The notes beneath the pieces are model-generated. The model was not told where the DNA came from and ran no database searches. It saw nothing but the letters and a program-made list of their open reading frames with translations. Positions 48,340 to 64,000 of a stretch of 64,000 nucleotides of DNA are shown here, one piece after another (the stretch's first letter is position 1; the number at the start of each line of letters is the position of its first letter). The DNA is from Neophaeotheca triangularis (taxonomy: Eukaryota). A program made the translations under genes and the position numbers. The DNA is taken from assembly GCA_054600435.1 (NCBI GenBank), contig BAAIJX010000079.1, positions 1-64,000 of the forward strand, written 5' to 3'.

Positions 48340-49206
48340 TACTAATAAAACATGAGCTAAGGCGATAGACGAGACTACATCCTTATACCTCTATAAAATT
48401 TAAGCTAGTTACATAACCTTAGACATCCCTTAGACTTCATCCCCTTTAGACATACCTTCGTACGGTATACTCCTAGTAATAACTAGCCCTAGTACAAGAG
48501 GCCTCTTTATATGTCGACAATACTAGCGCCACATCCTCTAAGCAATACGGTCACGCCGCGTAGTGACAATAGGGCTCTTATAAGCACTAGAGGGCCGTCT
48601 AGTATAGCTGTATTCGTCGGTATTAAGGGTTAGGGGCGGTACCTCCTTATGCGCCGGTTAGCTATACGAGTTTATGAAGTTATGAAGGCTATAGAGCGTA
48701 TACACTAGCATTACCTACACCTTAATCGAATACCCTTGCCTAGGGCTATGTTTTAAGATCTCAAAACGAGCCTTAAGTACACTAAATACCCTCTTAACGA
48801 TGTTCTAGAGCTGTACATGGCGTAGGTTAAATAGTTCCTCTAGAGTCTCTAGTTTTACTTACGACTTATACTACTCCTTAAGGTGATACCGCATCTTCAA
48901 GTAGGGTGTCAAGAGCGTCTTGTCTATAGCTATATACCCTACATCTACGAGCTAGTATGCCCTCTTAGGTATCTCAAACCCCTTCATCTTAGCTATATTT
49001 AGTACGGTACCGTCGTTCGTAGAGCCCTCCTACCCTAGTAAGACATATACAAAGTTCATGTCAAAATCTACTACTACTAGCATGTTCTACGATATGAACC
49101 CCTTCTAGTTATGCTATAGACCTTACATATTAGCTAGTATTGCGGCTAGGATGTACGAGCCATTAAGAGTACTAACATACCCTCGAAAGAACGGCTAGAG
49201 CTTCTT
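48340..49206 (-). pseudogene. Harbinger DDE transposase, C-terminal part (end approximate)
   Basis: De-RIPed LWPFFRGCVGALDGSHIP..NRKGFISQNVLAAVDFDMNFVYVLPGWEGSANDG..WLADAGY..LLTPY..RYHLKEW..EELFNLRHAQLRNIVERVFGVLKARFEIL. Confidence 0.92.
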
Positions 49207-49367
49207 TGACACAGTACGACAGTATGGGTCAGTATGTATGGTGTATAAAAGATAGGATAGACTCTCTATCTACAGCTAAAGCTAGAAGTACACACTATAC
49301 ATACTCTCTCCCCCTCTAGGTAGGAAGCTATAAGCCACACCCACACTAGATAACTCCTGCCATAACA
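49207..49367 (-). repeat. 3' LTR (161 bp)
   Basis: Matches 61405-61565 with 14 transitions and no indels. Confidence 0.97.
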
Positions 49368-49408
49368 GGTAGGGGGCTCCTCATGCTTACTATGTCCTCA
49401 TTAAGCCA

Positions 49409-49675
49409 AGACCGTCATGGTCCGTAGGAACCGAGTCGGTCAGTTTAAACCGAGTCGGTCGGTCTAAACTGAGGGGGCTTGCCGAAACCGAGTGGGTTTG
49501 CCGAAACCGAGTTGGTTACGTCAAACCGAGTGGTTTTGTTCGAACCGAGTCGGTTAGTAGGCATCTAGATAGAGTAAAACCGTGCGTGGGGTCCAAACCG
49601 TGTCCGCGGCTTCAAACCGCGCTAGTAGGTTCAAACCGCGCTAGCAAGTTCAAACCGCGCTAGTAGGTCAATCCG
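49409..49675 (+). repeat. 19-bp-phased AAACCG motif array (two blocks, about 14 units)
   Basis: Motif starts at 49409, 49428, 49447, 49466, 49485, 49504, 49523, 49542; then 49577, 49595, 49614, 49633, 49652, 49670. Confidence 0.92.
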
Positions 49676-49813
49676 TAGTAGTAGGTTCGCAGCTCGTGGT
49701 CTAAGGCCGACGGAGTTAGGGAAGAGTATTAGCGTGTCACGCTACTAGGATGAGAAATTAGTGGACCGCGATTCTATTCGATGTGTAACTAAGGAAATAT
49801 CTCGAACTACGGG

Positions 49814-50047
49814 TAGGCAAAAGCCTTCGCTGGATGGAAATCGCTTGTGGGTAGGCGAAAGCCTTCGCTAGATAGAAATTGCTTGCAAGTAGGCGAAAGC
49901 CTTCGCCTAGTGACGCTAAGTTTCGGACGCGGGCTCCGGAAACTGAAGGCAGGTGAACACCTTCGCCTTAATCGCTATATCGGCAGGCAAAAGCCTTCGC
50001 CTAGGGAGAAACGCTAAGCTTAGAGGCAGGTAAAAACCTTCGCCTAG
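49814..50047. repeat. Six copies of palindromic AGGY-N4-RCCT-TCGC motif
   Basis: Copies at 49814, 49852, 49890 (38-bp period), 49950, 49984, 50027. Confidence 0.88.
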
Positions 50048-50228
50048 TAGACTAGAGGGAGAAACAACGTAGGACAGAGGAGCGCGCATCGCGGTTATAC
50101 GGCTAGGCCGAAGTCTACAGCTACCTTGTTAATTTTTTAGGTCAGTGTTGTCTCACTATATCCCGCGCTGACGCGCCGTAGTTTATATAGTCTTCGGACC
50201 GTGGCACTCCTAAGGAGTAAGGAGCGCA

Positions 50229-53168
50229 TCATGCTCTAAAGTACGGCAGCTAGTAGCGTGCGCGCCTAGCTAACCTAGTCTCTATAGGAGGAGAGGCCTT
50301 CTAGCGGCGCACTAAAGGTGTCTAGGCCATAGCCTAAGGGCCTACGTCGTCTTCGGTAAGGTCTATGAATTCGACCTTCTTGGCGCTAGACAGAGGTACT
50401 TTCCCGGGAAAATGGAGGAGGACGGGAAGGGTTTCGGCTACGTCGCGGACAGTCTAGGAGATGCCGGAGGTATCGATTGTGACGGCGTCGAGCGCCTAGG
50501 CTTCTAGCCATTGTTTCTAGCTCTTTATCGTCTCCTACTCACCTTCCTACGGGCTAGGATCTTCGTAGATAGTGATGTCTCCCAAAATCATCCCTTTGTC
50601 CTATACGTCTTGTATTGCTTACATCCTCGCTCTTTGAACTTCCGCCGCCATGATAGCTATAGACTCGGAAGCTACCTTGACTAAGTCGTATTCCTTATGG
50701 GCCACCGCTATTAAGTTCATGGCCCTAGTGCGGACACCGTAGTCTACGCTGTTCATGTCCGACTTTATACTGTCGTAGTTAGTCTCCGCGTCCTAGAAGG
50801 TGCTAAGGGCGTTGATTCGCGCCTCGTAGAAGGCGAAAGCCTTCTAGTTGTACTCGCCTTAGAACTAGCTAGTACGGTACTAATCAATCTAACGCGCGGG
50901 GGAGGTCGGTTGTGAATGGCTCTATACGCCGGAGGCGCGGCGGAACGGGTTATTGCGGAGAGATAGGCTAGTAGGTGTGCGGTTAAACGGGTCGTTCATG
51001 GCGCTCGTATTAAGCGATAGGAAACGCTGTCCGCTACGCGAGCTATACGCTAGTTGTCTACCGCTAGAGGTAGGCTGCAACTACGCCTACTAGTTACCCG
51101 ATGTGCGAGGGTATTGGCCGGCTAGGGTAGCTTTTAGGTACTTATCTTTACGCCCCGAGAGGCCGCTAGACATTAGCGGAAGTTAGGCGCCTAGGACATA
51201 ACTACTATCGGCTAGGGTTCGCGCTTGGCCGGAGTATTAGGTTAGGTAATGGCCGCAGCGGTCCGGGGTAGCTGCTCCGTCGCTAGTGACGCGGTAGAGG
51301 TGGGGAGGAATCTAGAAACCGGCTTCTGACAACGTGGCCTAGTCGTTACCCGCTGCTGTCGTCGGCGAGGTGGAAGTGGACGGCAATCCCATGTAGCGGA
51401 GGGGTATAGGTGGCGGGAACGCCGCCATTCTTGCCATGGGTAGCTCTATGTCGGTATAGCGTTCCGCCGTGTCATCTAGTAGGATATTTCTCTATCCCTA
51501 GACTAGGGGCGGGGTGCGTAGAGTGGCGTTTCGTCCCTCTAACTAACTGTTGACAGTCACGTCGGTCATTAAGCGGTCGGGATGGCTACGGGGTAGCGAT
51601 ACTTGGTTGTCCATGAACTCGCGGTAGGCTAGAGAGATCCTATCCACATCGATAACCGTTAGCCAGCGTATTACTGTCTAGTCTACCTCGAGGTACTCCT
51701 CGTACTAGAACTTTTTGGCGCGGGCTTACCTCTACGTATAGTACGTGGACGGTTTAGTAGCGAGCGTGGGACGCTGCTATAGGAAGCTGCGCGGTAGGTT
51801 CGAGACTGTCGTCATCAGGTCTTTTTCTAGATCTCTAAGTGTCGTCAGGTAGTTGTATAGGTACCCGCTGCCGTAAAGCGTGTAGCATCCGTAGATGCAC
51901 GCATACTACTACTTCCTACTTATGTTTAACTAGAGGATGCCCGGGCGTCCCCTAGGGCGGCGGTTTAGTACTAGCTCGCCGCGAGCAGTAAAGGTCTCGG
52001 GCTAGTTACGGTACAAGATCTCGCTAGTCAGGAGAGAACGCTCCGATATAAGCATGAGCTCGAGCACGTCGCAATCTTCTAGCGCCGCATAGGTTAGTGG
52101 TAAGCTGTCGATGTCGAAACGGGAGTAGAAAGCGTAGTAGTAGTATAAGCCGGTGGTTTCGCCTAGGTTGAGCTCATGGCTAGGGTCACGTGTCATGCCG
52201 ATGCTCTCGGGGCGCTCCGGTAGCGTATACATTTAGTAGAAGTCGTAGGGAACCTTAGGGTTTCCGTACCACACAAAGTACGGGTTTGGTTACGCGCCTC
52301 CCATGTTAGCGAGGCAGTAAGTGATAAGGGGCTAGGGGCAAATCGTATAGAGTACCGCAAGACCGACCGCGCGGAGGACGAGTTCGAAGGCGCCGTCTTG
52401 CTTAAGGGTTTAGACGGACGAGTGTTCTCCCGCGGTCAGGAGTCGGACGGCCGCTACGACTATGTTGTTAAAAACACCGTTCGGTGTAAGGCTTTCGAGT
52501 GTTTCCTAGGGATGTAGTACTCCTAACGAGGTAGTTACGAGCTCATAGGCGTTGTCGATGAGCGCGACGTCTTGCGCCTTATTGCTATTACGTTAAGTAA
52601 CTAGTCGAAAGATAGAAGTAAACAGTGGATCGGCCTACTAGTAAACGGTAACGCAATTAGTAAGCGATTTGAAGGGTCGGAGCGAAGCTAGCTAGTAGGA
52701 GGCGTACTACTATAGACGGAAAGGGAGGTCGGTTTCGTGTAGCGCGAGTAGCTAAATTGTTCGAAGGTTGAGAGCGAGGTCTAAGAATGAAGGCGCTGCC
52801 GCCTTAAGGTCACAGAAAGTGTTATAGTATTCGGGAGTGTTAGGAAGGGTTATATCTACGCTTAGTCTTTCAAAAGCGACCTAGAGCTAACTGTCGCCCT
52901 CTCGGTAGCGGCGCGCGGCTTCTTCTACTGTCTCGTTAGGATTAAGCGCGCCCTATTAGATAAGTTCCTAGCGAGTGTTGTAACCGGGAAGATTTGTGAA
53001 AGGTGACGCCTGAGTTAGGGCCTAACGACGGATACGTAAGGCTTTCTTAGCCGGAGTCTAGGTTATGTCTACTACCGTGCCGGTAGGGACGCTGGGTTTG
53101 AATACCCGCGGCGTGAAAGTAGCGCGGCGGGGGTATAGAGGTAAGGTATACCTGTTTAGCGCCGGTAT
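50229..53168 (-). pseudogene. Extra retrotransposon ORF3, about 980 codons, unknown function (RIP-inactivated)
   Basis: One frame without frameshift; about 56 internal stops by hand count, all TAG/TAA (RIP-type); first in-frame TGA at 50229-50231; start inferred from ATA (RIPed ATG) at 53168. Confidence 0.75.
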
Positions 53169-53442
53169 CGATGTTACAAACCGAAACGCTTTAGAAGGTA
53201 GTTGTGAAGAAGGTAGGGCTAGAGACGGTTAGGATGTTAGTTAAGTCGGTTGTTATAAGTTGAAAGGTAGGAGTTATGGTTAGGAAAAGGTGTCGAGGTA
53301 AGTGTTGTTGTTAGTATTGTTATGAAGCTAGCTAGCGCGTAAGCGAGCGGAAACGCGGCGCCAAGCCGCGGTTACGACGTCACCCCTAACGATGGCGTCG
53401 GTATCGATAAGGTGATAGTGATAAGGAGGTGTACACGACACC

Positions 53443-56400
53443 TTAGGCCTGTCTATAGAAGGCTAGTGTGGCAGACCTCGTCTACCTCCTGACTTCCCTA
53501 CTAGTACAGATAGGGCGAGTCGGTATCACTAGGATTAGTACGCGGTTTGCCGTGGATGCTTGCTACTATTCTTCTCTAGTTTCAGTGTCGGTGGGGGCGG
53601 CGCTCTTAGCCGCCGCTACTAGGGCAGGATTAGTTATTAGGGTATTAGGCTTCCTACCCTTAACCCTAAGGTCTCCCTCCGTACCGGGGTACAGCTCGTC
53701 ATATTGGGCGACCATTTCTCGTGCGTCTAGTAGGTCGTCGATGTCGTACCATACGTTATGAGCTGGCCCCTAGCCGAGCCACTAGACAAGGTACTGTCTA
53801 ATGTCTTTCCCCTATTGCTTTCTCGTTCTACGTGCTAGTAGCCTCTTAATCTCGTATACTCCGACTCCGTCTTCATCTAGGTATACGGGCCTAGGCTCGC
53901 CGGGTTCCTAGCTGTAAGGGTCTAAGCTAGTTAGCGCCGGTTCGAGCTATATAACGGACACGACGGGGTGTATTTTCCAGTGCGGTAGGAGTTCTAGCTC
54001 GTAAGCCAGCTTCCCGACGACCTTAGAGATCTTGAAAGGGCCATATCGCTAGGCCGCTAGTTTCTTTAGGATAAAACCAGGTATTAAGTAACCACGCTAG
54101 AGGCGGAGTAGGATGTTTTGACCCTTTTTGAACCGGATTAGACGGTAGGCTTAGTCGTATCTGTCCTTTATGGCTACTACTACCATCGAGAGAGCGTCTA
54201 TTGCTTAATCGCGGGCTACCTGTCGTAGGGCGACGTAGTCTGCGACCGGAAGCTTAATTAGAGGGTCTAAGGCATCAAGGTTAGATTTGAAACCCTAGAT
54301 GAGGATGTTCGGCACTTATGCCGTCGATACGTTCACGGCGTTGTTTATCGACGATTGTATGTGCGTTAGGGCTACTACCTAGGGGGTATCCGGGTTGCCG
54401 TAGACGAAGAACCGGAGTGCGATCTCGATAGTCTAATTAGTGCGCTCCGACTGCCCGTCGGTCTACGGGTAGTAAGTAGTGGAGGCAAGGAAGCGAGTGT
54501 TTAACTTGGCAAACACTCCCTTCTAGAAAGCGGAAAGCCACAAGGGGTCCCGGTCACCGATAAGCATATAGGGGATATTCCACTCCGCGCTACGGAGAGC
54601 TTCTAGCCATACCGCCGCCCATTCCGGTACGTTCTAGTCGTTCCGCCCCTTGACCAGCAAGATTTTTTTGGAAAAACGGTCTGTGACCGTGAGCATTACG
54701 TCAAAGCCATCTGGCGTTAGAGGAAGCCCCGTTACCTAGTCGGCTGTCTAGGTATAGTAGGGGATCAGCTTGACTTGAGTAGGTTGTAGTTCGCCGAGCG
54801 GCTTAGATCGGAGAGTTTAGCACACCATGTAGTCGGGGCAATACGCGATGTAGCGCTAGAGCTTGTCTACTAGTCGGCGGATGTAAAAACTAGCCTATAT
54901 GCGGGAGTAAGTCCGGAAGAAGCCTACGTGATAGTAGTTATCATGTGCCATGCGGAAAATTTCTTGGAACAAGGGCTTAGGGATGTAAAGTCGTTCGCGG
55001 CTATCTTCCTCGTCGCGGAAATAGATCAACCGGTCTCGTAGAAAGAAGCGCAGTCTAAGGGGACTAGACTCTAGTTCGCCGGCAACATCCTCTAAGCTGC
55101 CCGCCTAGCCGTCGCTTTACGTAGTGGCGTTGTCTAAGGTAGTACGGGCTTCGCACTACTCTAGCTACTAGAGTCGCGGCTGCTAGAAAGTGTCGTTTAC
55201 GTAGCCGGTTCGAATCTCCTCTTTGAAACCGTCGTCTATTACGACTAGGGTGGTATGGAACACTACCGTTATCTATTCCTCGGCGAAATTGTTGTAGTAG
55301 GCGGCCATACTGCTATCGAAATAGTTCTCGTCGGCAGCCTAATTGGCCTCCTCGTAGCCAAGAGGGTCGAGGGTATCGGTATCTGGTTCCTTTGTTGTAG
55401 TGGCTCTATCGCCTAGTAGACGGCTAAGGGCGTCTAGGACTAGGTGGATTCGTCCCGGGCGGTACCTAACGTCGAGGTCGAACTAGCTAAGGTACTACGC
55501 TACCCGGACTAGGCGGAGGTTCAACTTATTAGTTGAAGTAGTCGTGGTAAGGCTAGAGTGGCTTGCTAATGCCGCGACGGCGGAGTGATCCGTGAAGACC
55601 ACCGTTGATTTTGTGAACGCCTAGATCATATGGCGGGCTTTTCGTAATAGCTATACCATGCCGGCCATTTCGAGCTCCGTGGGCTAGTAATTCTTTTCGG
55701 CCGTCGTAAGAGCTTTACTGAGGAATGCTACTAGTTAGATGTCGTGACGGGGGAAATGCAATGCTTTTCCCCTGTTCATTACAGGTTCTAGGTCCCCTGC
55801 CACTATATAGACCACTACTCTAAAGCCGAATTCCTTTGATGCATCGACATCGGTATATAGCTGACAGGTAGGGTCGATGTAATATAGGAACGGTGTGTCG
55901 CGGAAAATGCCCTGTAGTACCGCGAAGGCGCGGTAGGCTGCTTCCCAAATTGAATCGTCTAGGGAAACCGGCGTCTTCTCTAAAAACCGTTTACGCGCTC
56001 CGCCTTTAAGCGGGCTGTCCTTAAGGAGGGCCGTCTTTAGCATTTGCAATAGCTACACGATCTAGGCGTAGTAGGGCACGCATTGCCGTAGCTAGCTAGT
56101 GAGTCTAAGGTACTTTTCTAGGTCTTTGAGCGTTCGGGGAAACTAGAGGTCGACAATAGCCTTAACCTTGTCGTCATGGGTAGCTAGGCCGAGCCCGCTA
56201 ACCTACTAGCCTAGGAGGGTTATGGAGGGGAAACCTAGGAAGGTCTTCGCTAGGCTTAGACTGACTTTAACGGTGTTAAGGCGGCTAAACACCTATGCTA
56301 GGTAGTCTAGGTGTTCTTCTAGGGAGTGTAAGAACACCACGATATCGTCGATGTACGTATGGTAGAAAGGTCTTAGGTCGCGGAGAAGGTTGTCTAACTC

Positions 56401-57888
56401 TCTCTATACATAGGCGATCGAGTTCTTAAAACCCATTACCGCTACCTTAAAGACCTCTTGACCGCGATAGGAGTTCACCGCCAACTTGTGACGGTCTTAG
56501 GCCGCTACTAACCATTAGTAGAAAAAACTGACTGCGTCTATAGTGGATATGAATTAGCAGCCGCGCGTTACCTATAGTAGGTCCTCTTGTAGGGGAAGGG
56601 GGTAGCTGTCCTTCTAGGTAACTTTGTTTAGCCCGCGGATGTCGACTACTACTCGGCCTTTTCGAACCGGCAGCCCGTCCTTAATAACTGTTTTCTAGAC
56701 AACGAAAACTAGGGAGGCAAAACGGGTGTGCTCGGTGCTCCACTCCATCTTGCCTTATACATAGAGCGGATCGAGCGTGTTGTCGACGACTTTTCGATCT
56801 ACTACGCTGAGTGGGAAACCCTTTAAAGAAAGCTTGGCGGATTCCTAACCGTCACGAAGGGGTATCGGCATATGGCGCTACTCGGGAATGTCCACGTAGC
56901 GACCTTTGTCGATGAAAAGCTCCGGGAAGGACTACACTAATTTCTCTAGTGCGGTTACTTGGTCTTACGCTCCGTACACGGTAACGCCGTTTAACAGGAC
57001 GGTCTACTCTACCCGGGGCACTTCCTTATAGAAGGCTGTCTTTAATGGGAGGGCGGCGAGACAGTGACTGTCTAGTTCGACATGGTAACTGCCTTCTTCT
57101 ACCCATTCCGAGACACGACTGAGTGTTAATCCCTCGTGGACGGACACGGCTAGTGAGGTGTCATTGCGAACCATTACGAAGCTGCACTAGGCATCTATAG
57201 CATAGTTGTAGCTAGTGAGGCCGGCTGGCAAATTAGGCGACGGTGTAAACTAGGAGTCTCTGTTTCGTGGTAGGAGTGGGAATGTGGCTTCGACCCTTAG
57301 TAACGAGTTTGGTAGGACCTGGCATTGTTTCGCTACTATAACTGATCTAGCGGTACGCATTCTGTCCCGCTGTTTAACTAGGAGCGGGGCCTACGCTCCA
57401 GTATAGGTACCTAAGGTGACTAACTTCCTCGGGATGTCGATCTTCATGCGCTATAGAGATATGATATCCATGGCTAAAAGCATGAGCGGTTTGAGGTCCC
57501 GCATAACGTGCACCTCATGTCTCATTTCGTAGAGGACTCTCTATCCACTAGAAGCCGCGGGAATCTAGAAAGTAAGCAAAACATGTTCGCGGACCTCCCT
57601 TAACGAAGGGCCCACTCCTCGCACTCGAAACGGTAATTTAGACTTGATACGAGATATGGTAGGGAGCTGCGATAAGAGGAAATGTTCGTCGATGATAGAT
57701 ACTACCGCGCTAGTATCGAGGCAGACGGGGGTGTCTATATTTTGCTGCTAGAAACAGACAGGTATTCTAAGGTAATGGAAATTTCGAAATGCGTATCCCT
57801 CGTATACGGCACCTAGGGCCTACGACTTGACCATGGGTAGGCTCTTAGTCGGATCAGTAATTGTCTGCCCTAGGGCTTTGCCGGCTAG
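53443..57888 (-). pseudogene. pol: Gypsy pol: protease, RT, RNase H, integrase, chromodomain (end approximate)
   Basis: CLDT(G)AVVSIIDEHF near 57710; FISTIDAVSFFY(Q)W near 56530; YIDDIVV near 56350; DVDASKEFGF near 55840; HDN..H.GFFR and DGQSERT in IN; YGPFKI..KLAYEL..HPVVSV; chromodomain YEI.RLLARR..YLV.WLG.GPAHNVWY near 53700-53860. Confidence 0.95.
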
Positions 57889-60800
57889 TCAGGCAGGATC
57901 GCTATACTCGGCTCGCAGGTAGCGATACAGTGCGTTTTTAGTGCCGAACTTAGTTTTGTAGTGCTAGCATCGTTGCTTTACTGGCCTCGGGGACGCTACG
58001 ATAAGCGGTCGTAGCGCCTACTCGGTTATTAGTGTAATGGATACGACGCTACGGAGTGTAGGGCTGTGCTAGGGGAGCACCTTATTGACATATGTATCGA
58101 AAACGTCGTCCTCGGGAGCATAAAGATCATCGCTATTAGTGCCGTAGGCGATTAGGTCTACGAAGTTGTTCTTAAACTCGGCGAGGACATCCTCGCCTTC
58201 TAACTACATTTCTTCACCCTCGTCATCTATAAAGTTGTTAGAAGGGCGCGAGTCTTGGCGATTCTAGCTTTAGCGGTTTTGATTGCGCCAGGTTGCCGCT
58301 AGTTATTACTAGGCTAGTGTGTTGCGCCCCGCCTAGCCATCTCGTGGTGGCGCCGTATCTAAGCGGCGTTTAGCCGAAACGGACGCGTTTCTAAATGGTA
58401 GCGCTTAGGGCGTCTAAGTTAGCCTTTCGCTTAGGCGGGCGCTACTAGGAAGAAACGGCTGGCGTTGTGCTAGAGCCTATTAGGGGGGATTAGTCTGTAG
58501 GCGGAAACCGTTATTGTTGTTTCGTCTAGAACGGCAGTTGTTGAAGCCGCGGTCCTAGATGCTGTCAAATCGCTTACTAGACTCGGCTAGCTGAACTATC
58601 GGACGATTTAGGTAAAGGTCAGTCTAGGTGTCGAAACAGTCCTCTATTTAACGGATGAGGCTCTCTTAGGTTGTTCTTCTATTAGGCTTAGGGATGTTTT
58701 GGCGAAGGGGGGCCTCAATTTTGAGCTAACATTAGGAGAGGCGAGCTGTAAGGCTATCAATTTTGGCCTCCTACGCCTATCGAGTACAACTAAGAACGAA
58801 TTCGGAGGGGGCGCGGCCACTACGCACGTCGTTACGTGTATAGGCCTCCCGGTTAAGGTTACTCATGGCAGTTATGACTAAGACTCGGAATTTATTGCGT
58901 AGGGCTTTTTCCCATCTCTTGATGCTAGAACTACCCCGGAGGTGCCGTCGCTCCGACTTAGTTAGCTACGACATGAGCTAAATAGAAGCTCCTCCGCGAA
59001 GGCACTTCCCTAGGTGTTTATGCGTTTCGGACGACGAATTCACTTCGGCGTAGTCTCTAGTAGATTCCAAGAAGAAATGCACTGATCGATAGTACTACTT
59101 GTTCTAGGCTATAACCTAGTCTCTAGCTAGTGCCTTAGCCGTGCTAAGGTAGGGGTCAAAGTACCTAACCTCCTCCGCTTTAAAGGGGGCATGTTTAGAT
59201 CGAGAGCGAGAGCCGCTACGTTAGGGGCTGTCGACTCGGTCGCCGGAGTCTTCGCGATAGCGGCAGTACCCGCTCCCACGGGAGCGGCGATTACGGCAGT
59301 TACGCCTACGGCTTCGGGATAGGCTGTTAGACGAGGATGATCCCGAGCTTAGGCTAGAGCTACTACTCGGGTCTTAACGCCGGTGGTAGCGAGTGCTATA
59401 GCGGCGTGGCTCGCGGTGGTGACTACGTCCACGAGGCTCGGCTAGAGGTTAAGCGTCGGCTAGGTGTTCGTTTGGCTCCTACGCCTAGAGGTTACCTCTA
59501 CGAAGCCGCTCGGAGCGCGAGTAGTAGCTATCTAGGCGGCTGACAATACGAGAGCCGAAATTCGACTCGACTAAGGGCATGGCGTAGGCATGTTCGTTAT
59601 AGAGATAGCGGTCGATTACGCTAGGAGCACTTACGGGGCCCGAGGGCTAGTTAGCTAGTAGGATGTCGTTTTGCGTAGGACTAGTAGCTACACTCTATCG
59701 GTTCTCTTCGTTACGGGACTCTTTACGGGCGGCAATTAAGTCGCGAATCTCGTTGAAACGAGCTTCGACGTACGCCTCGTTACGTTCTTAGACTTGCTGT
59801 ATCGATTCCTATAAGAGACCTCGGATCGCGTCGAGAGTTAGCACTTAGGCCTATTACTAGGGCGGTCGCTAGGCCGGCTGTTATAGGGGCGGTTACGCCG
59901 GCTACTGTAGCGGCTACTGCGGCGGCTACTACTACGGCTACTCGGGGTAAGGGGGGGCTACTAAGCGGTTTCGCTATACGCGCCTAGGCTAGTCGGGTTC
60001 CCCGTGTACGTCGGCCATAGTAGCTAGCTGCGTTAGGGGTAATAGGGGGTAGGAGGTAAGTTGTTCGAAACGGTGTGGGATATAGCGGAAACTCATGACA
60101 GACGCTTAAGTCGAGGGGGAAGACAGGCGTAGGCTAACTTCGACAGCTGAGTCTGTATTACTAAGACGGGCTAGTTGTATTAGATCGAAGAGAGGCGGCT
60201 CGTTAGGCTAGGCGGGGTTGTCACTTATTGTAGTGCTAAGCGGGGACGAAGAGGGTAGGGGGACTTAGGGTGGAGTCGTAGGGGTAGTGGGTAAGGGGAT
60301 CTACGGGGGGGATAGTTAGGTCTAGGGGGTAGGTAGAGGGATCTAAGGAGGAGACAGGGCGGGCAAGGTAGCTCGGGTAATAGGAGGGAGCTAGCGGTTC
60401 TACGACGGGCGTATCGTGCGGGGAGCGAATGTGGCCGCTAGTATGTCGGCTAGCGTAGATCTCTCGTGCCCAAATTGGAGGCGTAGGTAGTGCCGGATCC
60501 GTTCGTACTAAGCTAGGAAAGTCTTTACTGTAGCGGTAATGAGGGTCTTGTCGACGGACCACTACTCTAGGAAACCGAATTCCCCTTAGGGGGCTCCTCT
60601 AGGGTATACGGCGGTGACCTTCTTAGTAGCTTAGTGTAGCGTCTTGTAGCGGTTCTTCAATGCTTTCGACCGTGTAGGATTAGTGTAGAAGCAAAAGAGT
60701 TAATGAGCTTCCTTAATGTTGTCGGCACTTAACTAGGGTAAGGGTAAGGAAGCCACGGTTACGAAAGGGAAAGACGGCTTAGAGCTTGTTTACTATGTGA

Positions 60801-61100
60801 GGCGTAGCTGCCGAATCGGACAATGGTTATATCTAGGCGGTTTATCGCGATTTGAGTAAAGGGCGGCAGAAAAGGGTGTTATGAGCGTAGCTCGGAGGGG
60901 CGAGAGGTTAGGGTCGCTAGCCTCGTGTAGTACCGGGCTATAAGGCGCCTAGGCGCGTATAGAGATGCTTGCGATCTTCTTAGACGCTTGTCTACTCTCT
61001 ACTGTTTCGATGTCACCCTCGATAGCTCTTTTTCCACTCGGCTCTATACCGAGCTCTCGACTCTACTACTAAGGCCTAGTTCTAATTGCTTTAGTCAGCG
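57889..61100 (-). pseudogene. gag: Gypsy gag (long, Pro/Arg-rich, C-terminal C2H2-type zinc finger); start approximate
   Basis: Same frame as pol; FKAEEV(G)YFDP near 59160; RC.H(C)KT.FGTKNAL(H)R(H)LRAE(H) near 57904-57970; ends at TGA 57889-57891. Confidence 0.75.
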
Positions 61101-61150
61101 TCGGTCCGGGCTAGCATAGGTCACTTAGGACGGGTAAGGTCGCCGGGAGC

Positions 61151-61350
61151 TAGTCGGTTCGTGCTGACGTAATCGGTTTAAGCTAACGGAGACGGTTTAG
61201 AGTAAGCGAGTCGGTTTAGACCAATGAAGTCGGTTTGACCGAAGCGAGTCGGTTTGAGCTAATGGAGTCGGTTTAAGCAGGTCTAGTCGGTTTAAACTAG
61301 CGGAGTCGGTTTGGGCGGGTCGAGTCGGTTTGAAACGGCGGAGTCGGTTT
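61151..61350 (-). repeat. 19-bp-phased (GAGT)CGGTTT array, 11 units with variable spacers
   Basis: CGGTT starts at 61155, 61174, 61193, 61212, 61231, 61250, 61269, 61288, 61307, 61326, 61345. Confidence 0.95.
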
Positions 61351-61393
61351 GAAGAAACTGTCTAGGGATGATCTTGATAGATCTTGACCTTCT

Positions 61394-61402
61394 CAGCTAC
61401 TA
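61394..61402 (-). other. Putative primer binding site (tRNA-iMet-like)
   Basis: TAGTAGCTG 2 nt downstream of the 5' LTR; one RIP-type reversal gives TGGTAGCTG, complementary to a ...CAGCUACCA tRNA 3' end (recalled for Neurospora initiator tRNA, not verified here). Confidence 0.6.
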
Positions 61403-61404
61403 CT

Positions 61405-61565
61405 TGACACAGTATGACAGTATGGGTTAGTATATGTGGTATGTGAAAGATAGGATAGACTCTCTATCTACAGCTAAAGCTAGAAGTATACACTATACAC
61501 ACTCTCTCCCCCTCTAGGTAGGAAGCCACAAGCTACACCCACACCAGATAACTCCTACCATAACA
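61405..61565 (-). repeat. 5' LTR (161 bp)
   Basis: TG...CA, matches 49207-49367. Confidence 0.97.
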
Positions 61566-62044
61566 TTCTTATTACTATAGATTTAGTGTAGAGTAGTAGT
61601 AGTTATAGGTAGTTAAGTCTTTACCTTATACCGTCGTATAAGAGTAAGCAATATTACTTTAATATAACTATAGAGACTAGTAGGTAAGTGCTAGAATGTC
61701 CGCCGTAGACCCCTAAGACTTACTCCCCTAGTATATATATCTAAAAAGATCACTACCTTCTCTACCGCTTTAACTTAGTAACCGTCCTTAAGGCTATACT
61801 CGCTTACTAGCTTATCTACTAACTATATTAAGCTCTCTCTTATCATCCGGGTAACCTCCTTATACCTCTAGTCATTATTTAGTACTAACTAGGTCTCCTT
61901 TACCCCCTTACTAGGCTCTAAAACTAGAGTTTATTAAGGCCCTTATAGTATGTAGTACCGCATAAGGAAGGTTGTAAGCTCCTCTATGACCTTAATGTTA
62001 GCTTCTATCTAAGCGATGACGAGCTCGTCGAGCAGTCTGTTCAT
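61566..62044 (-). pseudogene. Harbinger DDE transposase, N-terminal part
   Basis: ATG at 62044 (MNRLLDELVIA); LKDG..VKAVEKVVIFL...SLRGLRRTF(Q)H(S); removing the Gypsy plus one TSD restores the frame ..SNKKL(W)PFFRG. Confidence 0.85.
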
Positions 62045-62437
62045 AAGAGTAACGCGTATAGCAAAAGCAGTATAGGTTTATAAGAGTAACGCGTATAGTA
62101 AAGGCAGTATGGCAAAAGCAGTATGGCAAAAGCAGTATAGCTTGTAGTAGACGGAGCTATATACACTTTCTATAAAAACACGAACAAGACACGACAGGGT
62201 ATGTACGAGCTATAGGCCATAGGACCATAGGGCTATAGGACTACGAAATACACCTCTAGGGGTGTATTTTGTGGCTCCAAAAAAGACTACGGTCCTATAG
62301 CTCTTAGTGGCTCTAGAGCCATGGCGGAGCTACCATACTACTACGAACAGTCGGAGCTACCAGAACTAGGACCGCTAAGGTACCCCCAAGGTACCTCCAA
62401 TTCACTAATTAGTAGCGAGCCGTGGTCATGGTCCTAG

Positions 62438-62475: not shown

Positions 62476-63393
62476 TTAGTACTAAGTTCCTAAGGAGGTG
62501 GACCTTGTACTTCTAGGTGGCGTCTTTTATCTAATTGGCTGAAGGTTGCTTGTAGGGTTAGAGTTGTAGTCTTGAGCCACTCTAACACTAACCCTATGGT
62601 GGACTAGTGACACCTTCTTTTTGACGACGGTAAGGTATTGATACTGACAGTATTGACTAGAGGTATTAGAATCGCTAAGACAGGTTAGGAAACACAGCTG
62701 AGTATTGGTGTGGAGTGATCAAACAACTCTTACCGCTAATTTACCTTATAAAGACATCGCGACTTGGGAAAACCAACTTGAGGCTCTCTCCCAAGCCCAG
62801 CTCATCCGTCGAGAGGCAGCGTCGGCGTATCAAATGACGACTCACAAGACAGACGTCCAAGAACACGATACTTGTATACCTAATGAAGGACGCCAACGCA
62901 TACGAGGGAAGACAACACGATTGTAAAGCACCCGCCGCCCCGTCCAGCCTTGCAGCACAAGATGATTCGCCACCCAACCTACCCAGGCAGTAAGGTAGCC
63001 GCCCGGATGCCTTTGCAGAAGCACTGCAGCAATCCTCAATCTATGCAATAATGTTAGCAGCCACCGACCTTCGCTTGACGGACGCGCCGCCTGGCCTGCG
63101 GATGACCGGTGTAGCTCGAGCCCCTCACGCGGTCAGGACTCACAGGCTCGGCCTCCTCTTCTGCAACCGGTGAACCAAGCTCCCCGAGCTCCATCAGTCG
63201 CGTAGCCGCTGCCACGCTGCTCCACGCGTGCCTGGGCATGTGAAGAAGCTGGTTATATGTCGACAGCCCCCGCTGTCCAGTGTCGTCTACTTGTCTTGTC
63301 GATGAGCTATCGTTTCTTTCACTTTCGCCCTACCGGTTCGCAGTGTTTACCACTGCTTACTCCTGTTTCTCGCTCCCTCTCGCAGCTGCAAGT

Positions 63394-64000
63394 ATGGCAG
63401 CCGAACATGGTATAGAGGACGACGCCCAAGTCGCATCAGCAAGCATAGCAGCCCAGCGTGGCATGGAGGACGACACCCAAGACTTAGATCTCGCACACAG
63501 TCTATCGTTCCAATCTTCCTCTTCAGTCTTCGCTGACATGGGCCAGATGTCTGGAGAAGCAACAGGGTCAGAAGACTGGAGGCGCTACACTTTCTTCGAG
63601 AACTTTGGTTGATCCAGGTTGACGACGATGGAGACGTCAAGGATAGAGAAATGCAATCATCTGAATGTGACAGCAAACACGCGGTGAGTACCGACAAGGG
63701 GAAGCGGAAACAGACAGAAGATGTCGGCAGTGGATTCTGCAAGCAAGAAGCAATACACACCCGCGACAATGGATGTCATCGGAGCAATGCTACGGAATCG
63801 GAGGCGGACACATCCGCACATGATGAGCCAGACTACCCTCACAACAAGTACCCAGTGGGCTACGACTGTGAAACAATTGACGCTATTCGGATGTCTCTTG
63901 GTGAGGACTTTGAGTCAGACCCTTCACCACCCCTGGAGTTTGAAAAAGGCTGCCGGAACCCAAATTGCACCTACGAGCACTCATCGTTGAGCTGCAAGAG
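63394..64000 (+). CDS. Hypothetical acidic protein, 5' part, runs off the window
   Basis: ATG 63394 (MAAEHGIEDD), possible short intron near 63500-63546 (weak GTCTAT donor, GCTGAC branch, CAG acceptor), then an open frame LEALHFLRELWLIQVDDDGD...DKGKRKQ... to the window end; no recognisable family. Confidence 0.4.

Follow-up and report, generated by a model that had tools for sequence, protein, structure and literature searches.

The window analysed here, a 64-kb stretch of DNA (positions 1 to 64,000 of contig BAAIJX010000079.1 from Neophaeotheca triangularis), carries on its minus strand a complete long terminal repeat (LTR) retrotransposon of ~12.4 kb (49207-61565), which has been degraded by repeat-induced point mutation (RIP). 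Just inside its two LTRs lie arrays of a short motif repeated every 19 bp: array B in the 5′ leader and array A, divided into A1 and A2, in the 3′ untranslated region (UTR). In both locations a conserved core is separated by diverged spacers. The features of the element are summarized in Table 1.

The element is delimited by a direct repeat of 162 nt found by self-BLAST of the window, with copies at 49206-49367 and 61404-61565 that are 91% identical; apart from the array itself, this is the sole long repeat near array B. Because the repeat pair has TG and CA ends and is bounded on both outer sides by the 5-bp sequence AAGAA, the LTR element is complete. The PBS-like (primer-binding-site-like) heptamer, TAGTAGC, differs by a single G-to-A change from TGGTAGC, which, compared by eye, complements a tRNA 3′ end of GCTACCA, as in the yeast initiator tRNA (PMC7957392); the evidence for a PBS thus consists of one 7-nt match with one mismatch, and no purine tract lies directly against the 3′ LTR. 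GAGGAG, the closest one, is 9 nt upstream of the 3′ LTR and separated from it by CCCCCTACC (49368-49422). The gag-pol genes occupy a continuous frame in which all 60 stops listed, of 139, are TAG or TAA. Its read-through product P0001, with X at the stops, contains RVT_1 (residues 1494-1644), RT_RNaseH (1801-1887) and, in the integrase region, Integrase_H2C2 (2053-2103) and SH3_Tf2-1 (2359-2401), followed by Chromo (2429-2482). P0001 has 279 homologues at E <= 1e-10, the best with 44% identity, and the few that are named come from ascomycetes (Diplodia, Parastagonospora, Podosphaera and Lasallia). Intact relatives are among the long hits, one being P0002, with 2485 aa encoded on an 11.9-kb contig. 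The predicted domain order of reverse transcriptase, RNase H, integrase and C-terminal chromodomain identifies the element as a fungal Ty3/gypsy chromovirus. Since the gag motif RYFDPY begins at 59166 and the closest relative has 458 residues ahead of the matching motif, a start of the gag open reading frame (ORF) near 60534 is implied. The imprint of RIP is visible in the dinucleotide indices: TpA/ApT is 2.15 in the element and 0.77 over the initial 46 kb of the window, and (CpA+TpG)/(ApC+GpT) is 0.55 and 1.14, respectively. The observed/expected CpG ratio is 1.58 in the array B region, 1.26 in the array A region and 0-0.14 in the LTRs. The 64-kb window contains no tRNA gene, and self-BLAST found no second copy of the element in it.

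Table 1. Features of the retrotransposon and its immediate borders in the window
Feature	Position	Strand	Description
Target-site duplication, upstream copy	61566..61570	-	AAGAA, read off the sequence
5′ LTR	61405..61565	-	161 bp, TG...CA ends
PBS-like heptamer	61396..61402	-	TAGTAGC, starts 2 nt past the 5′ LTR
Array B	61142..61350	-	11 units x 19 nt, core AAACCGACT(C) and variable spacer of ~10 nt
gag-pol	53503..61140	-	One continuous frame, 139 stops
ORF3-like frame	50000..53150	-	Downstream of pol, protein-like, 63 stops read as X, orphan family
Third tandem array	49810..49906		38-bp period (2 x 19), 2.6 copies, 86% matches, 3′ UTR
Array A1	49572..49672	-	5 units x 19 nt, one interval 18
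Array A2	49423..49560	-	7 units x 19 nt, 3′ UTR; sense strand keeps ACTCGGTTT
3′ LTR	49207..49367	-	161 bp, TG...CA ends
Target-site duplication, downstream copy	49202..49206	-	AAGAA, read off the sequence

Array B begins 54 nt past the end of the 5′ LTR, behind the PBS-like heptamer and at least ~600 nt upstream of the implied gag start, in agreement with an earlier, sequence-only reading of the window that had placed it between the PBS and gag. The eleven units and exact 19-bp period reported there are also borne out: the units follow one another without an indel from 61350 to 61142 on the minus strand, and all 10 intervals are exactly 19. The six units quoted in that reading are correct in every letter, and its range, 61151-61350, is short by the last 9 nt of unit 11. 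The exact sequence AAACCGACT occurs 8 times in the window, always in the register of array B, where chance predicts 0.47 occurrences; this number was reached in 0 of 100 shuffles. In Tandem Repeats Finder the array is listed with periods of 19, 38 and 57; the highest score goes to the 38-bp row (4.7 copies, 77% matches, score 165), because two spacer types loosely alternate. The spacers also share base preferences by column, with a pyrimidine at columns 13, 14 and 19 in 11/11 units and G at column 16 in 8/11, so the units descend from one 19-mer. Two other descriptions of the array were rejected: a coding repeat of 57 nt (19 codons), in which the invariant 9-mer would fall in all three frames, and a higher-order repeat of four units, for which the self-match at offset 76 (76.7% over 103 bp) is expected from the conserved cores alone.

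A second 19-bp array, absent from the earlier reading, comprises 12 units at 49423-49672, just inside the 3′ LTR. On the plus strand the units of A2 read AAACCGAGT, and three of the seven retain the full near-palindrome ACCGACTCGGT, while those of A1, set off from A2 by a short break in phase, read AAACCG[C/T]G. Array A has eleven intervals: nine of 19, one of 18 and one of 35. Its last core stands 60 nt from the 3′ LTR, mirroring the 54 nt at the 5′ end of the element. The third tandem array in the 3′ UTR is built from a different unit, which contains the near-palindrome GCGAAAGCCTTCGC; one contig of the source run is without a 42-nt stretch in this array.

The invariant blocks of arrays B and A on the sense strand are reverse complementary (AAACCGACT versus ACTCGGTTT), and the full unit is a near-palindrome, AAACCGA-(C/G)-TCGGTTT, of which array B keeps the left arm and array A the right, so that both read AAACCG inward from their LTR. 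The 64-kb window has 55 matches to AAACCG, 19 of them within the arrays, where the strands are fully segregated (plus in 9/9 cases in A, minus in 10/10 in B); the 36 matches outside the arrays are consistent with the chance expectation of 29.5 +/- 5.9. Scored with a weight matrix derived from B, A2 reaches 12.6 bits per unit in antisense and 8.8 in sense orientation, with 200 shuffles at -12.4 +/- 1.5. Judged by these comparisons, the two arrays are certainly related, and the reverse complementarity of their invariant blocks favours an inverted orientation of A relative to B. As C exceeds G on the sense strand in the spacers of both arrays, as elsewhere in the element, array A did not arise recently as an inverted duplicate of B; it is the cores, and not the spacers, that are held in opposite orientation. 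This arrangement narrows the mechanisms that can explain both arrays to a reader of double-stranded DNA or to RNA-RNA pairing. A double-stranded reader meets an identical site in both arrays because the conserved blocks are reverse complementary, and one single-strand RNA binder for both is excluded because the cores of the sense RNA differ.

Core and spacers have changed to very different extents. In array B, columns 1-9 retain 96 of 99 cells, the three changes being two transitions and one transversion, whereas in columns 10-19 there are 50 departures from the column consensus among 110 cells, 28 of them transitions and 22 transversions, and the reported pairwise identity of the spacers is ~40%, their pairwise divergence ~57%. 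Per-column conservation across units, which the sequence-only reading had proposed as a check, thus separates 3/99 changes in the core from 50/110 in the spacers. For transversions the contrast gives a Fisher p of 3e-6, calculated over cells that are not independent, and array A2 has 1 transversion in 63 core cells and 14 in 70 spacer cells. The nine conserved columns are contiguous, for which the chance on a 19-column cycle is 2e-4 with core boundaries that were picked after seeing the data.

The timing of these changes can be read from the LTR pair, whose 14 differences over 162 nt are all transitions, with 0 transversions; change after insertion is essentially RIP. Because the LTRs show no transversions, the 22 spacer transversions of array B and the 14 of A2 predate insertion, and the active element therefore already had conserved cores, diverged spacers and a fixed phase. 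The earlier claim that the core is kept while the spacers differ by transversions beyond the reach of RIP survives in part: the 22 transversions, set against 0 in the LTRs, support it, but 28 of the 50 spacer changes are transitions and the core is itself immune to RIP. The core has probably been selected, and the spacing probably too, the strongest argument being that the pattern is repeated independently in a second array. Within this one element, the core/spacer contrast and the constant phase accordingly favour selection on motif and phase over recent slippage, as had been suggested.

Our preferred reading, to which we assign a probability of about 0.4, is that the arrays are paired cis-acting recognition arrays, most likely made up of double-stranded DNA sites for a sequence-specific factor and serving a regulatory role. 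Each core would be a site or half-site on double-stranded DNA, bound probably by a host transcription factor acting as a dimer or oligomer, and the constant 19-bp spacing would allow adjacent bound molecules to make contact. Together the two arrays could form a regulatory platform of the enhancer, insulator or chromatin type, serving an element whose 161-bp LTR may be too short and too CpG-poor for much regulation. Protein binding at the arrays is plausible; we infer it, together with the action on DNA and the effect, from the arrangement of the arrays. As the copy in the window has been killed by RIP, any function of the arrays is now a relic.

Several points weigh against such recognition arrays. 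The core was matched to no known motif, and gag together with the array B leader is single-copy in the source assembly at >= 80% likeness. A spacing of 19 bp does not correspond to whole helical turns: at 10.5 bp per turn, successive units would be rotated by ~-69 degrees, which would suit a wrapped or spiral assembly and not cooperative binding on the same face. The units share ancestry, so the Fisher p-values and cell counts overstate the number of independent events, and the core, having no CpA or TpG, is RIP-immune too, which inflates the contrast in transitions only and not that in transversions. The unrelated 38-bp array in the 3′ UTR would be expected of a region that is merely prone to tandem duplication, and the strand argument is equally compatible with RNA-RNA pairing. 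A B-box, the site of TFIIIC, was considered as the identity of the core and rejected. The B-box consensus has a critical C, in place of which the CGGTTT strand has T in 20/23 units, and GGTTT is ancestral because CpG is not depleted in the element.

A more far-reaching proposal, which we regard as decidedly improbable, is that the two inverted and equally phased arrays constitute a single bipartite machine, equivalent in a retrotransposon to the inverted subterminal repeats that DNA transposons carry. In a protein version, a multivalent protein on both arrays would bridge the ends of the element, in the complementary DNA or in the provirus; in an RNA version, the unstructured 5′ array would zip with the 3′ array and so circularise or dimerise the genome, a zipper that would offset the very short LTR and R (repeat) region in strand transfer. 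We are not aware of a description of either form, as a phased multi-site array, in LTR retrotransposons.

Pairing between the two arrays can also be considered in its own right, as a bipartite element of the genomic RNA. The 11 copies of AAACCGACU in a single-stranded 5′ array would then pair with the 7-12 copies of ACUCGGUUU in the 3′ array, either inside one molecule, giving cyclisation, or between two co-packaged molecules, giving dimer linkage. Such pairing would bring R/U5 (unique 5′ region) and the PBS beside the polypurine tract and U3 (unique 3′ region), aiding primer use and first-strand transfer. The conserved halves are exactly complementary over 7 nt (AAACCGA with UCGGUUU), the 19-nt period is common to both arrays, and the consulted parts of two reports supply precedents in the cyclisation and palindromic dimerisation sites of Ty1 (PMC7969010) and in the Ty3 PBS, split over the 5′ and 3′ UTRs (PMC5371799). 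Folding agrees to a degree. The RNA of array B has less structure than shuffled versions of itself (z = +1.52; 193/200 shuffles fold equally well or better), that of array A folds well (z = -3.08; 0/200 shuffles are as good), and when the two are cofolded the gain is -34.5 kcal/mol, compared with -11.5 +/- 3.5 when A is replaced by its shuffles (60 in all). However, the antisense of A gives nearly the same gain with B (-31.7 kcal/mol), and this lack of orientation specificity arises because the motif is near-palindromic. In addition, position 8 would be a systematic C-C mismatch (B has C, and the plus strand of A has G), complementarity between the spacers is not register-specific (diagonals of 0.26-0.46 with an overall mean of 0.36, where 0.26 is expected from composition), and the complementarity follows automatically from inverted DNA sites and hence is not independent evidence. 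The pairing evidence adds nothing beyond the near-palindromic core, and we judge the RNA element unlikely. Much further down the scale is the possibility that the 3′ array is a multimerised PBS extension directed against the T arm of the initiator tRNA, with the 5′ array mimicking a segment of that tRNA. In the portions of the sources used here, the T loop and stem of the yeast initiator tRNA contain CGAAACCGAG (PMC7957392), and the Ty3 T arm pairs with the 3′ UTR (PMC5371799). Compared by eye, the sense core of array A, ACTCGGTTT, complements 8 nt of CGAAACCGAG, extending to 10 nt in 2/7 units (CTCGGTTTCG), and AAACCGA is common to the sense core of array B and the yeast initiator tRNA; the heptamer after the LTR, allowing for one G-to-A change, is also compatible with a tRNA that ends in GCTACCA. 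T-stem sequences vary between species, and the yeast tRNA used in the comparison may not be that of the host, so that possibly only AAACC is transferable. Past the heptamer, moreover, there is no match between the leader (TGAGAAGG) and the yeast acceptor stem; if TGAGAAGG belongs to the PBS, a different tRNA, with a T stem other than CCGAG, would be implied. Rfam, searched at E up to 1, gives nothing tRNA-like in either array region.

The arrays might alternatively be neutral minisatellites, created by tandem duplication in the UTRs through template switching during reverse transcription, with a core that owes its conservation to mutational bias and shared descent. Hypervariable repeats are common in the 3′ UTR of plant Tat/Ogre elements and are ascribed, in the part of the literature drawn on, to illegitimate recombination or abnormal strand transfer (PMC7004042). 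The 3′ UTR of the present element likewise holds three adjacent arrays, including the unrelated 38-bp one, the core offers no CpA/TpG target to RIP, and the 38-bp periodicity and shared column preferences show descent from a common 19-mer. Most of the metagenome loci listed with four copies of AAACCG at 19-bp spacing are, in addition, homogeneous minisatellites with spacer identities of 0.7-1.0. Uniform decay, however, does not yield 1/99 transversions in the core against 22/110 in the spacers, nor the same outcome in a second array, and, since the spacer transversions are older than the insertion, the cores survived many error-prone replication cycles. The ten intervals of array B have remained without an indel despite ~57% pairwise divergence of the spacers, and the opposite orientation of the cores at the two ends is not predicted by slippage; on this balance we find a neutral origin unlikely as well. 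The least probable of the explanations, and a very unlikely one, is that hairpins formed by the near-palindromic units supply RNA silencing, making the arrays a small-RNA hotspot. The array A RNA is structured, with a 14-bp hairpin formed by two neighbouring units, and the palindrome-rich LTR region of maize Sireviruses is described in the available part of one study as hairpin-capable and a hotspot of matches to small interfering RNA (siRNA) (PMC4728375). Array B, on the other hand, is unstructured, and a feature that aids host silencing would not be kept by selection on the element.

Motif clusters in noncoding DNA of retrotransposons are known from plants and flies, with a logic that is understood for gypsy only, and we compared the recognition arrays proposed here with them as far as the published accounts at hand extend. 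The repeated-motif (RM) boxes of Sireviruses (Bousios et al. 2010 and 2016) are palindromes with a CGG-CCG core that occur in 8-32 copies with divergent flanks, form CpG islands and are located in the LTR and upstream of env (PMC2829016); their function was only hypothesised, as cis-regulation or an siRNA hotspot (PMC2829016, PMC4728375), and they were later shown to be siRNA hotspots capable of forming hairpins (PMC4728375). Arrays B and A resemble them in having many copies (11 + 12) of a short motif based on CGG/CCG, with a conserved core and divergent flanks, clustered in CpG-rich noncoding DNA of an LTR retrotransposon. In contrast to the Sirevirus boxes, which are found in U3 of the LTR, ahead of the TATA box, and upstream of env, they lie outside the LTRs, 54 and 60 nt into the internal sequence, and in place of CGG...CCG they have the everted order CCG-N3-CGG (ACCGA-S-TCGGT), complete in 3/7 A2 units and represented by one arm in B. 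Their period is strict, where the Sirevirus accounts consulted report none, and Sireviruses are plant Ty1/copia elements, whereas the element in the window is a fungal chromovirus.

The insulator of Drosophila gypsy, as described in the part of PMC2374998 that was available, is located in the 5′ UTR and made up of 12 sites for Su(Hw), between which the spacers vary. It shares with array B about a dozen conserved sites, short variable spacers, a position in the 5′ leader between PBS and gag and a Ty3/gypsy-type element. Unlike the arrays described here, whose sites are known from sequence alone, it is a proven protein-binding platform with a known binder and function; on the same partial account, it has a 12-bp core, AT-rich spacers and ~28 bp per site without an exact period, and lacks a 3′ partner array. 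The Su(Hw) consensus YRYTGCATAYYY is not found here, where the core is AAACCGACT and the host is, by the names of the homologues, fungal. The arrays in the window thus appear to be work-alikes, and not members, of the Sirevirus boxes or the gypsy insulator, because the position and triplet order of the former do not fit and the Su(Hw) motif of the latter is missing.

Other comparisons concern the two ends of the element. The CYC5/CYC3 sequences of Ty1 and the bipartite PBS of Ty3 are likewise complementary cis-elements beside the 5′ and 3′ LTRs, in the RNA of yeast LTR retrotransposons (PMC7969010, PMC5371799), but in the portions of these reports relied on they are single short sites demonstrated genetically, whereas here phased arrays are involved and their complementarity is not orientation-specific. 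The 3′ UTR repeats of plant Tat/Ogre elements (Macas 2009, cited in PMC7004042) are also short tandem arrays beside an LTR and are treated as by-products of replication (PMC7004042); in contrast to array A, they vary in unit sequence and length, and the consulted part of that paper reports neither a conserved core with diverged spacers nor a mirrored partner in the leader (PMC7004042). The inverted placement of arrays A and B at the two ends recalls the subterminal repeats of DNA transposons. Those repeats and the iterons of plasmids are phased short repeats that bind a transposase or an initiator. The element differs from both in having no replication origin, Rep gene or transposase, relying instead on reverse transcription and on an integrase with a DDE catalytic motif that works on the LTR tips, ~215 bp from the arrays. 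The term iteron-like, used in the sequence-only reading, consequently holds as an analogy only, there being no replication origin or Rep gene at this retrotransposon leader.

New in the present element are the exact 19-bp phase, the strongly diverged spacers and the mirrored partner array at its other end. If relatives keep this design, it would represent a compact and testable cis-element, and the motif-box architecture would recur in both superfamilies of LTR retrotransposons and in three kingdoms. Because it comes from one dead copy, its value is that of a lead and not of a result.

Related arrays were sought in several collections. A profile of 12 homologues searched against IMG/VR retrieved 10 distant Ty3/gypsy contigs (L127-L136) with 24-31% identity. 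Four of them (L127, L128, L129 and L132) carry 4-8 copies of the 12-bp palindrome TCGCCYRRGCGA within ~250 bp downstream of pol, with variable spacers that put neighbours 19, 20 or 21 bp apart; no TCGCCYRRGCGA cluster is present in the other six. These clusters resemble the arrays of the window in consisting of conserved palindrome copies with variable spacers, 19-21 bp apart in noncoding DNA, and differ from them in their motif, their inexact spacing and their occurrence as a single cluster, the pol proteins being 28-31% identical. Because 4/10 such distant contigs carry them, the array architecture appears to recur in the superfamily with different motifs. The motif TGGTATCAGAG, which we take to be a plant-type PBS motif, was found in three of the four contigs searched for it, and for this reason the hosts of the four palindrome-bearing contigs are probably plants. 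Although all ten contigs are catalogued as viruses, they are Ty3/gypsy retrotransposons that were assembled as circles, their ends overlapping by 30-127 bp.

A pattern of four copies of AAACCG at 19-bp spacing matched at least 120 metagenome loci. Nearly all of those listed are ordinary 19-bp minisatellites, and comparison of the whole element with the listed loci by tblastn and blastn gave trivial array-to-array matches only and no retroelement homology. Eight of the loci (L001, L024, L031, L032, L043, L053, L067 and L080) belong to an AT-rich element resembling a miniature inverted-repeat transposable element, with ends of the GGGGTG...CACCCC type and densely packed AAACCG(A/G) and CGGTTT subterminal repeats. 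These look like the transposase-binding repeats of a DNA transposon, and the loci, considered as possible kin, are unrelated to the element in the window. In IMG/VR, two cores 19 bp apart occur at 6 loci, none of which has an array, and Rfam at E up to 1 gave no match in either array region. A literature search for AAACCGACTC together with retrotransposon returned nothing relevant, and the matches listed for CCGAGTCGG / CCGACTCGG come mostly from genome editing and molecular cloning and are uninformative, this 9-mer presumably being part of the Cas9 guide-RNA scaffold.

The ORF3-like frame downstream of pol was examined as a possible source of an array-binding protein. Out of 1.84 billion representatives only 9 are homologous to it, the best hit having E = 2e-35 and 35% identity. 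No Pfam family was found in its three sense frames, in plus-strand pieces or in 8 homologues, and Atlas gave a weak lead to DUF6590 with a score of 0.87, below 0.9. The AlphaFold model of the best homologue (P0123) has a mean pLDDT (predicted local distance difference test) of 50, with one confident domain, of no recognised fold, at approximately residues 45-135 and 160-195 and a long helix; compared with the PDB by Foldseek, it has no match at E up to 0.001, and VIA-align gave only generic coiled-coil matches at residues 336-406, with Z up to 6.3. Taken together, these results neither support nor contradict a role of ORF3 as array binder, and no DNA-binding signature was seen in the frame.

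When contigs of the source run were placed on 48900-61900 at 80% likeness, gag and array B were covered by the window's own contig alone; two further sequencing runs gave no cover of this interval at the same likeness, which is no proof of absence. One contig of 3277 nt matches the ORF3 region alone (50673-53496), with ~15% of letters differing. Since gag-pol has no second copy, this part also occurs on its own at another place in the genome. Another contig follows the element to 53921 and then continues in telomere-type repeats (TAGGGTTAGGG...), which suggests a truncated copy capped by a telomere. A further contig joins 49141 straight to 61591, skipping the element, so that an element-free repeat of the flanking DNA exists at another place. 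The flanks of the element are RIP-like too, with TpA/ApT of 2.05 and 1.62. Within the gag frame, a 12-bp tandem repeat lies at 59899-59942 in a proline-/glutamine-rich stretch full of TAG stops, and the right flank carries more tandem repeats at 62039-62138 and 63380-63481, with 37-bp, 14-bp and 51-bp units.

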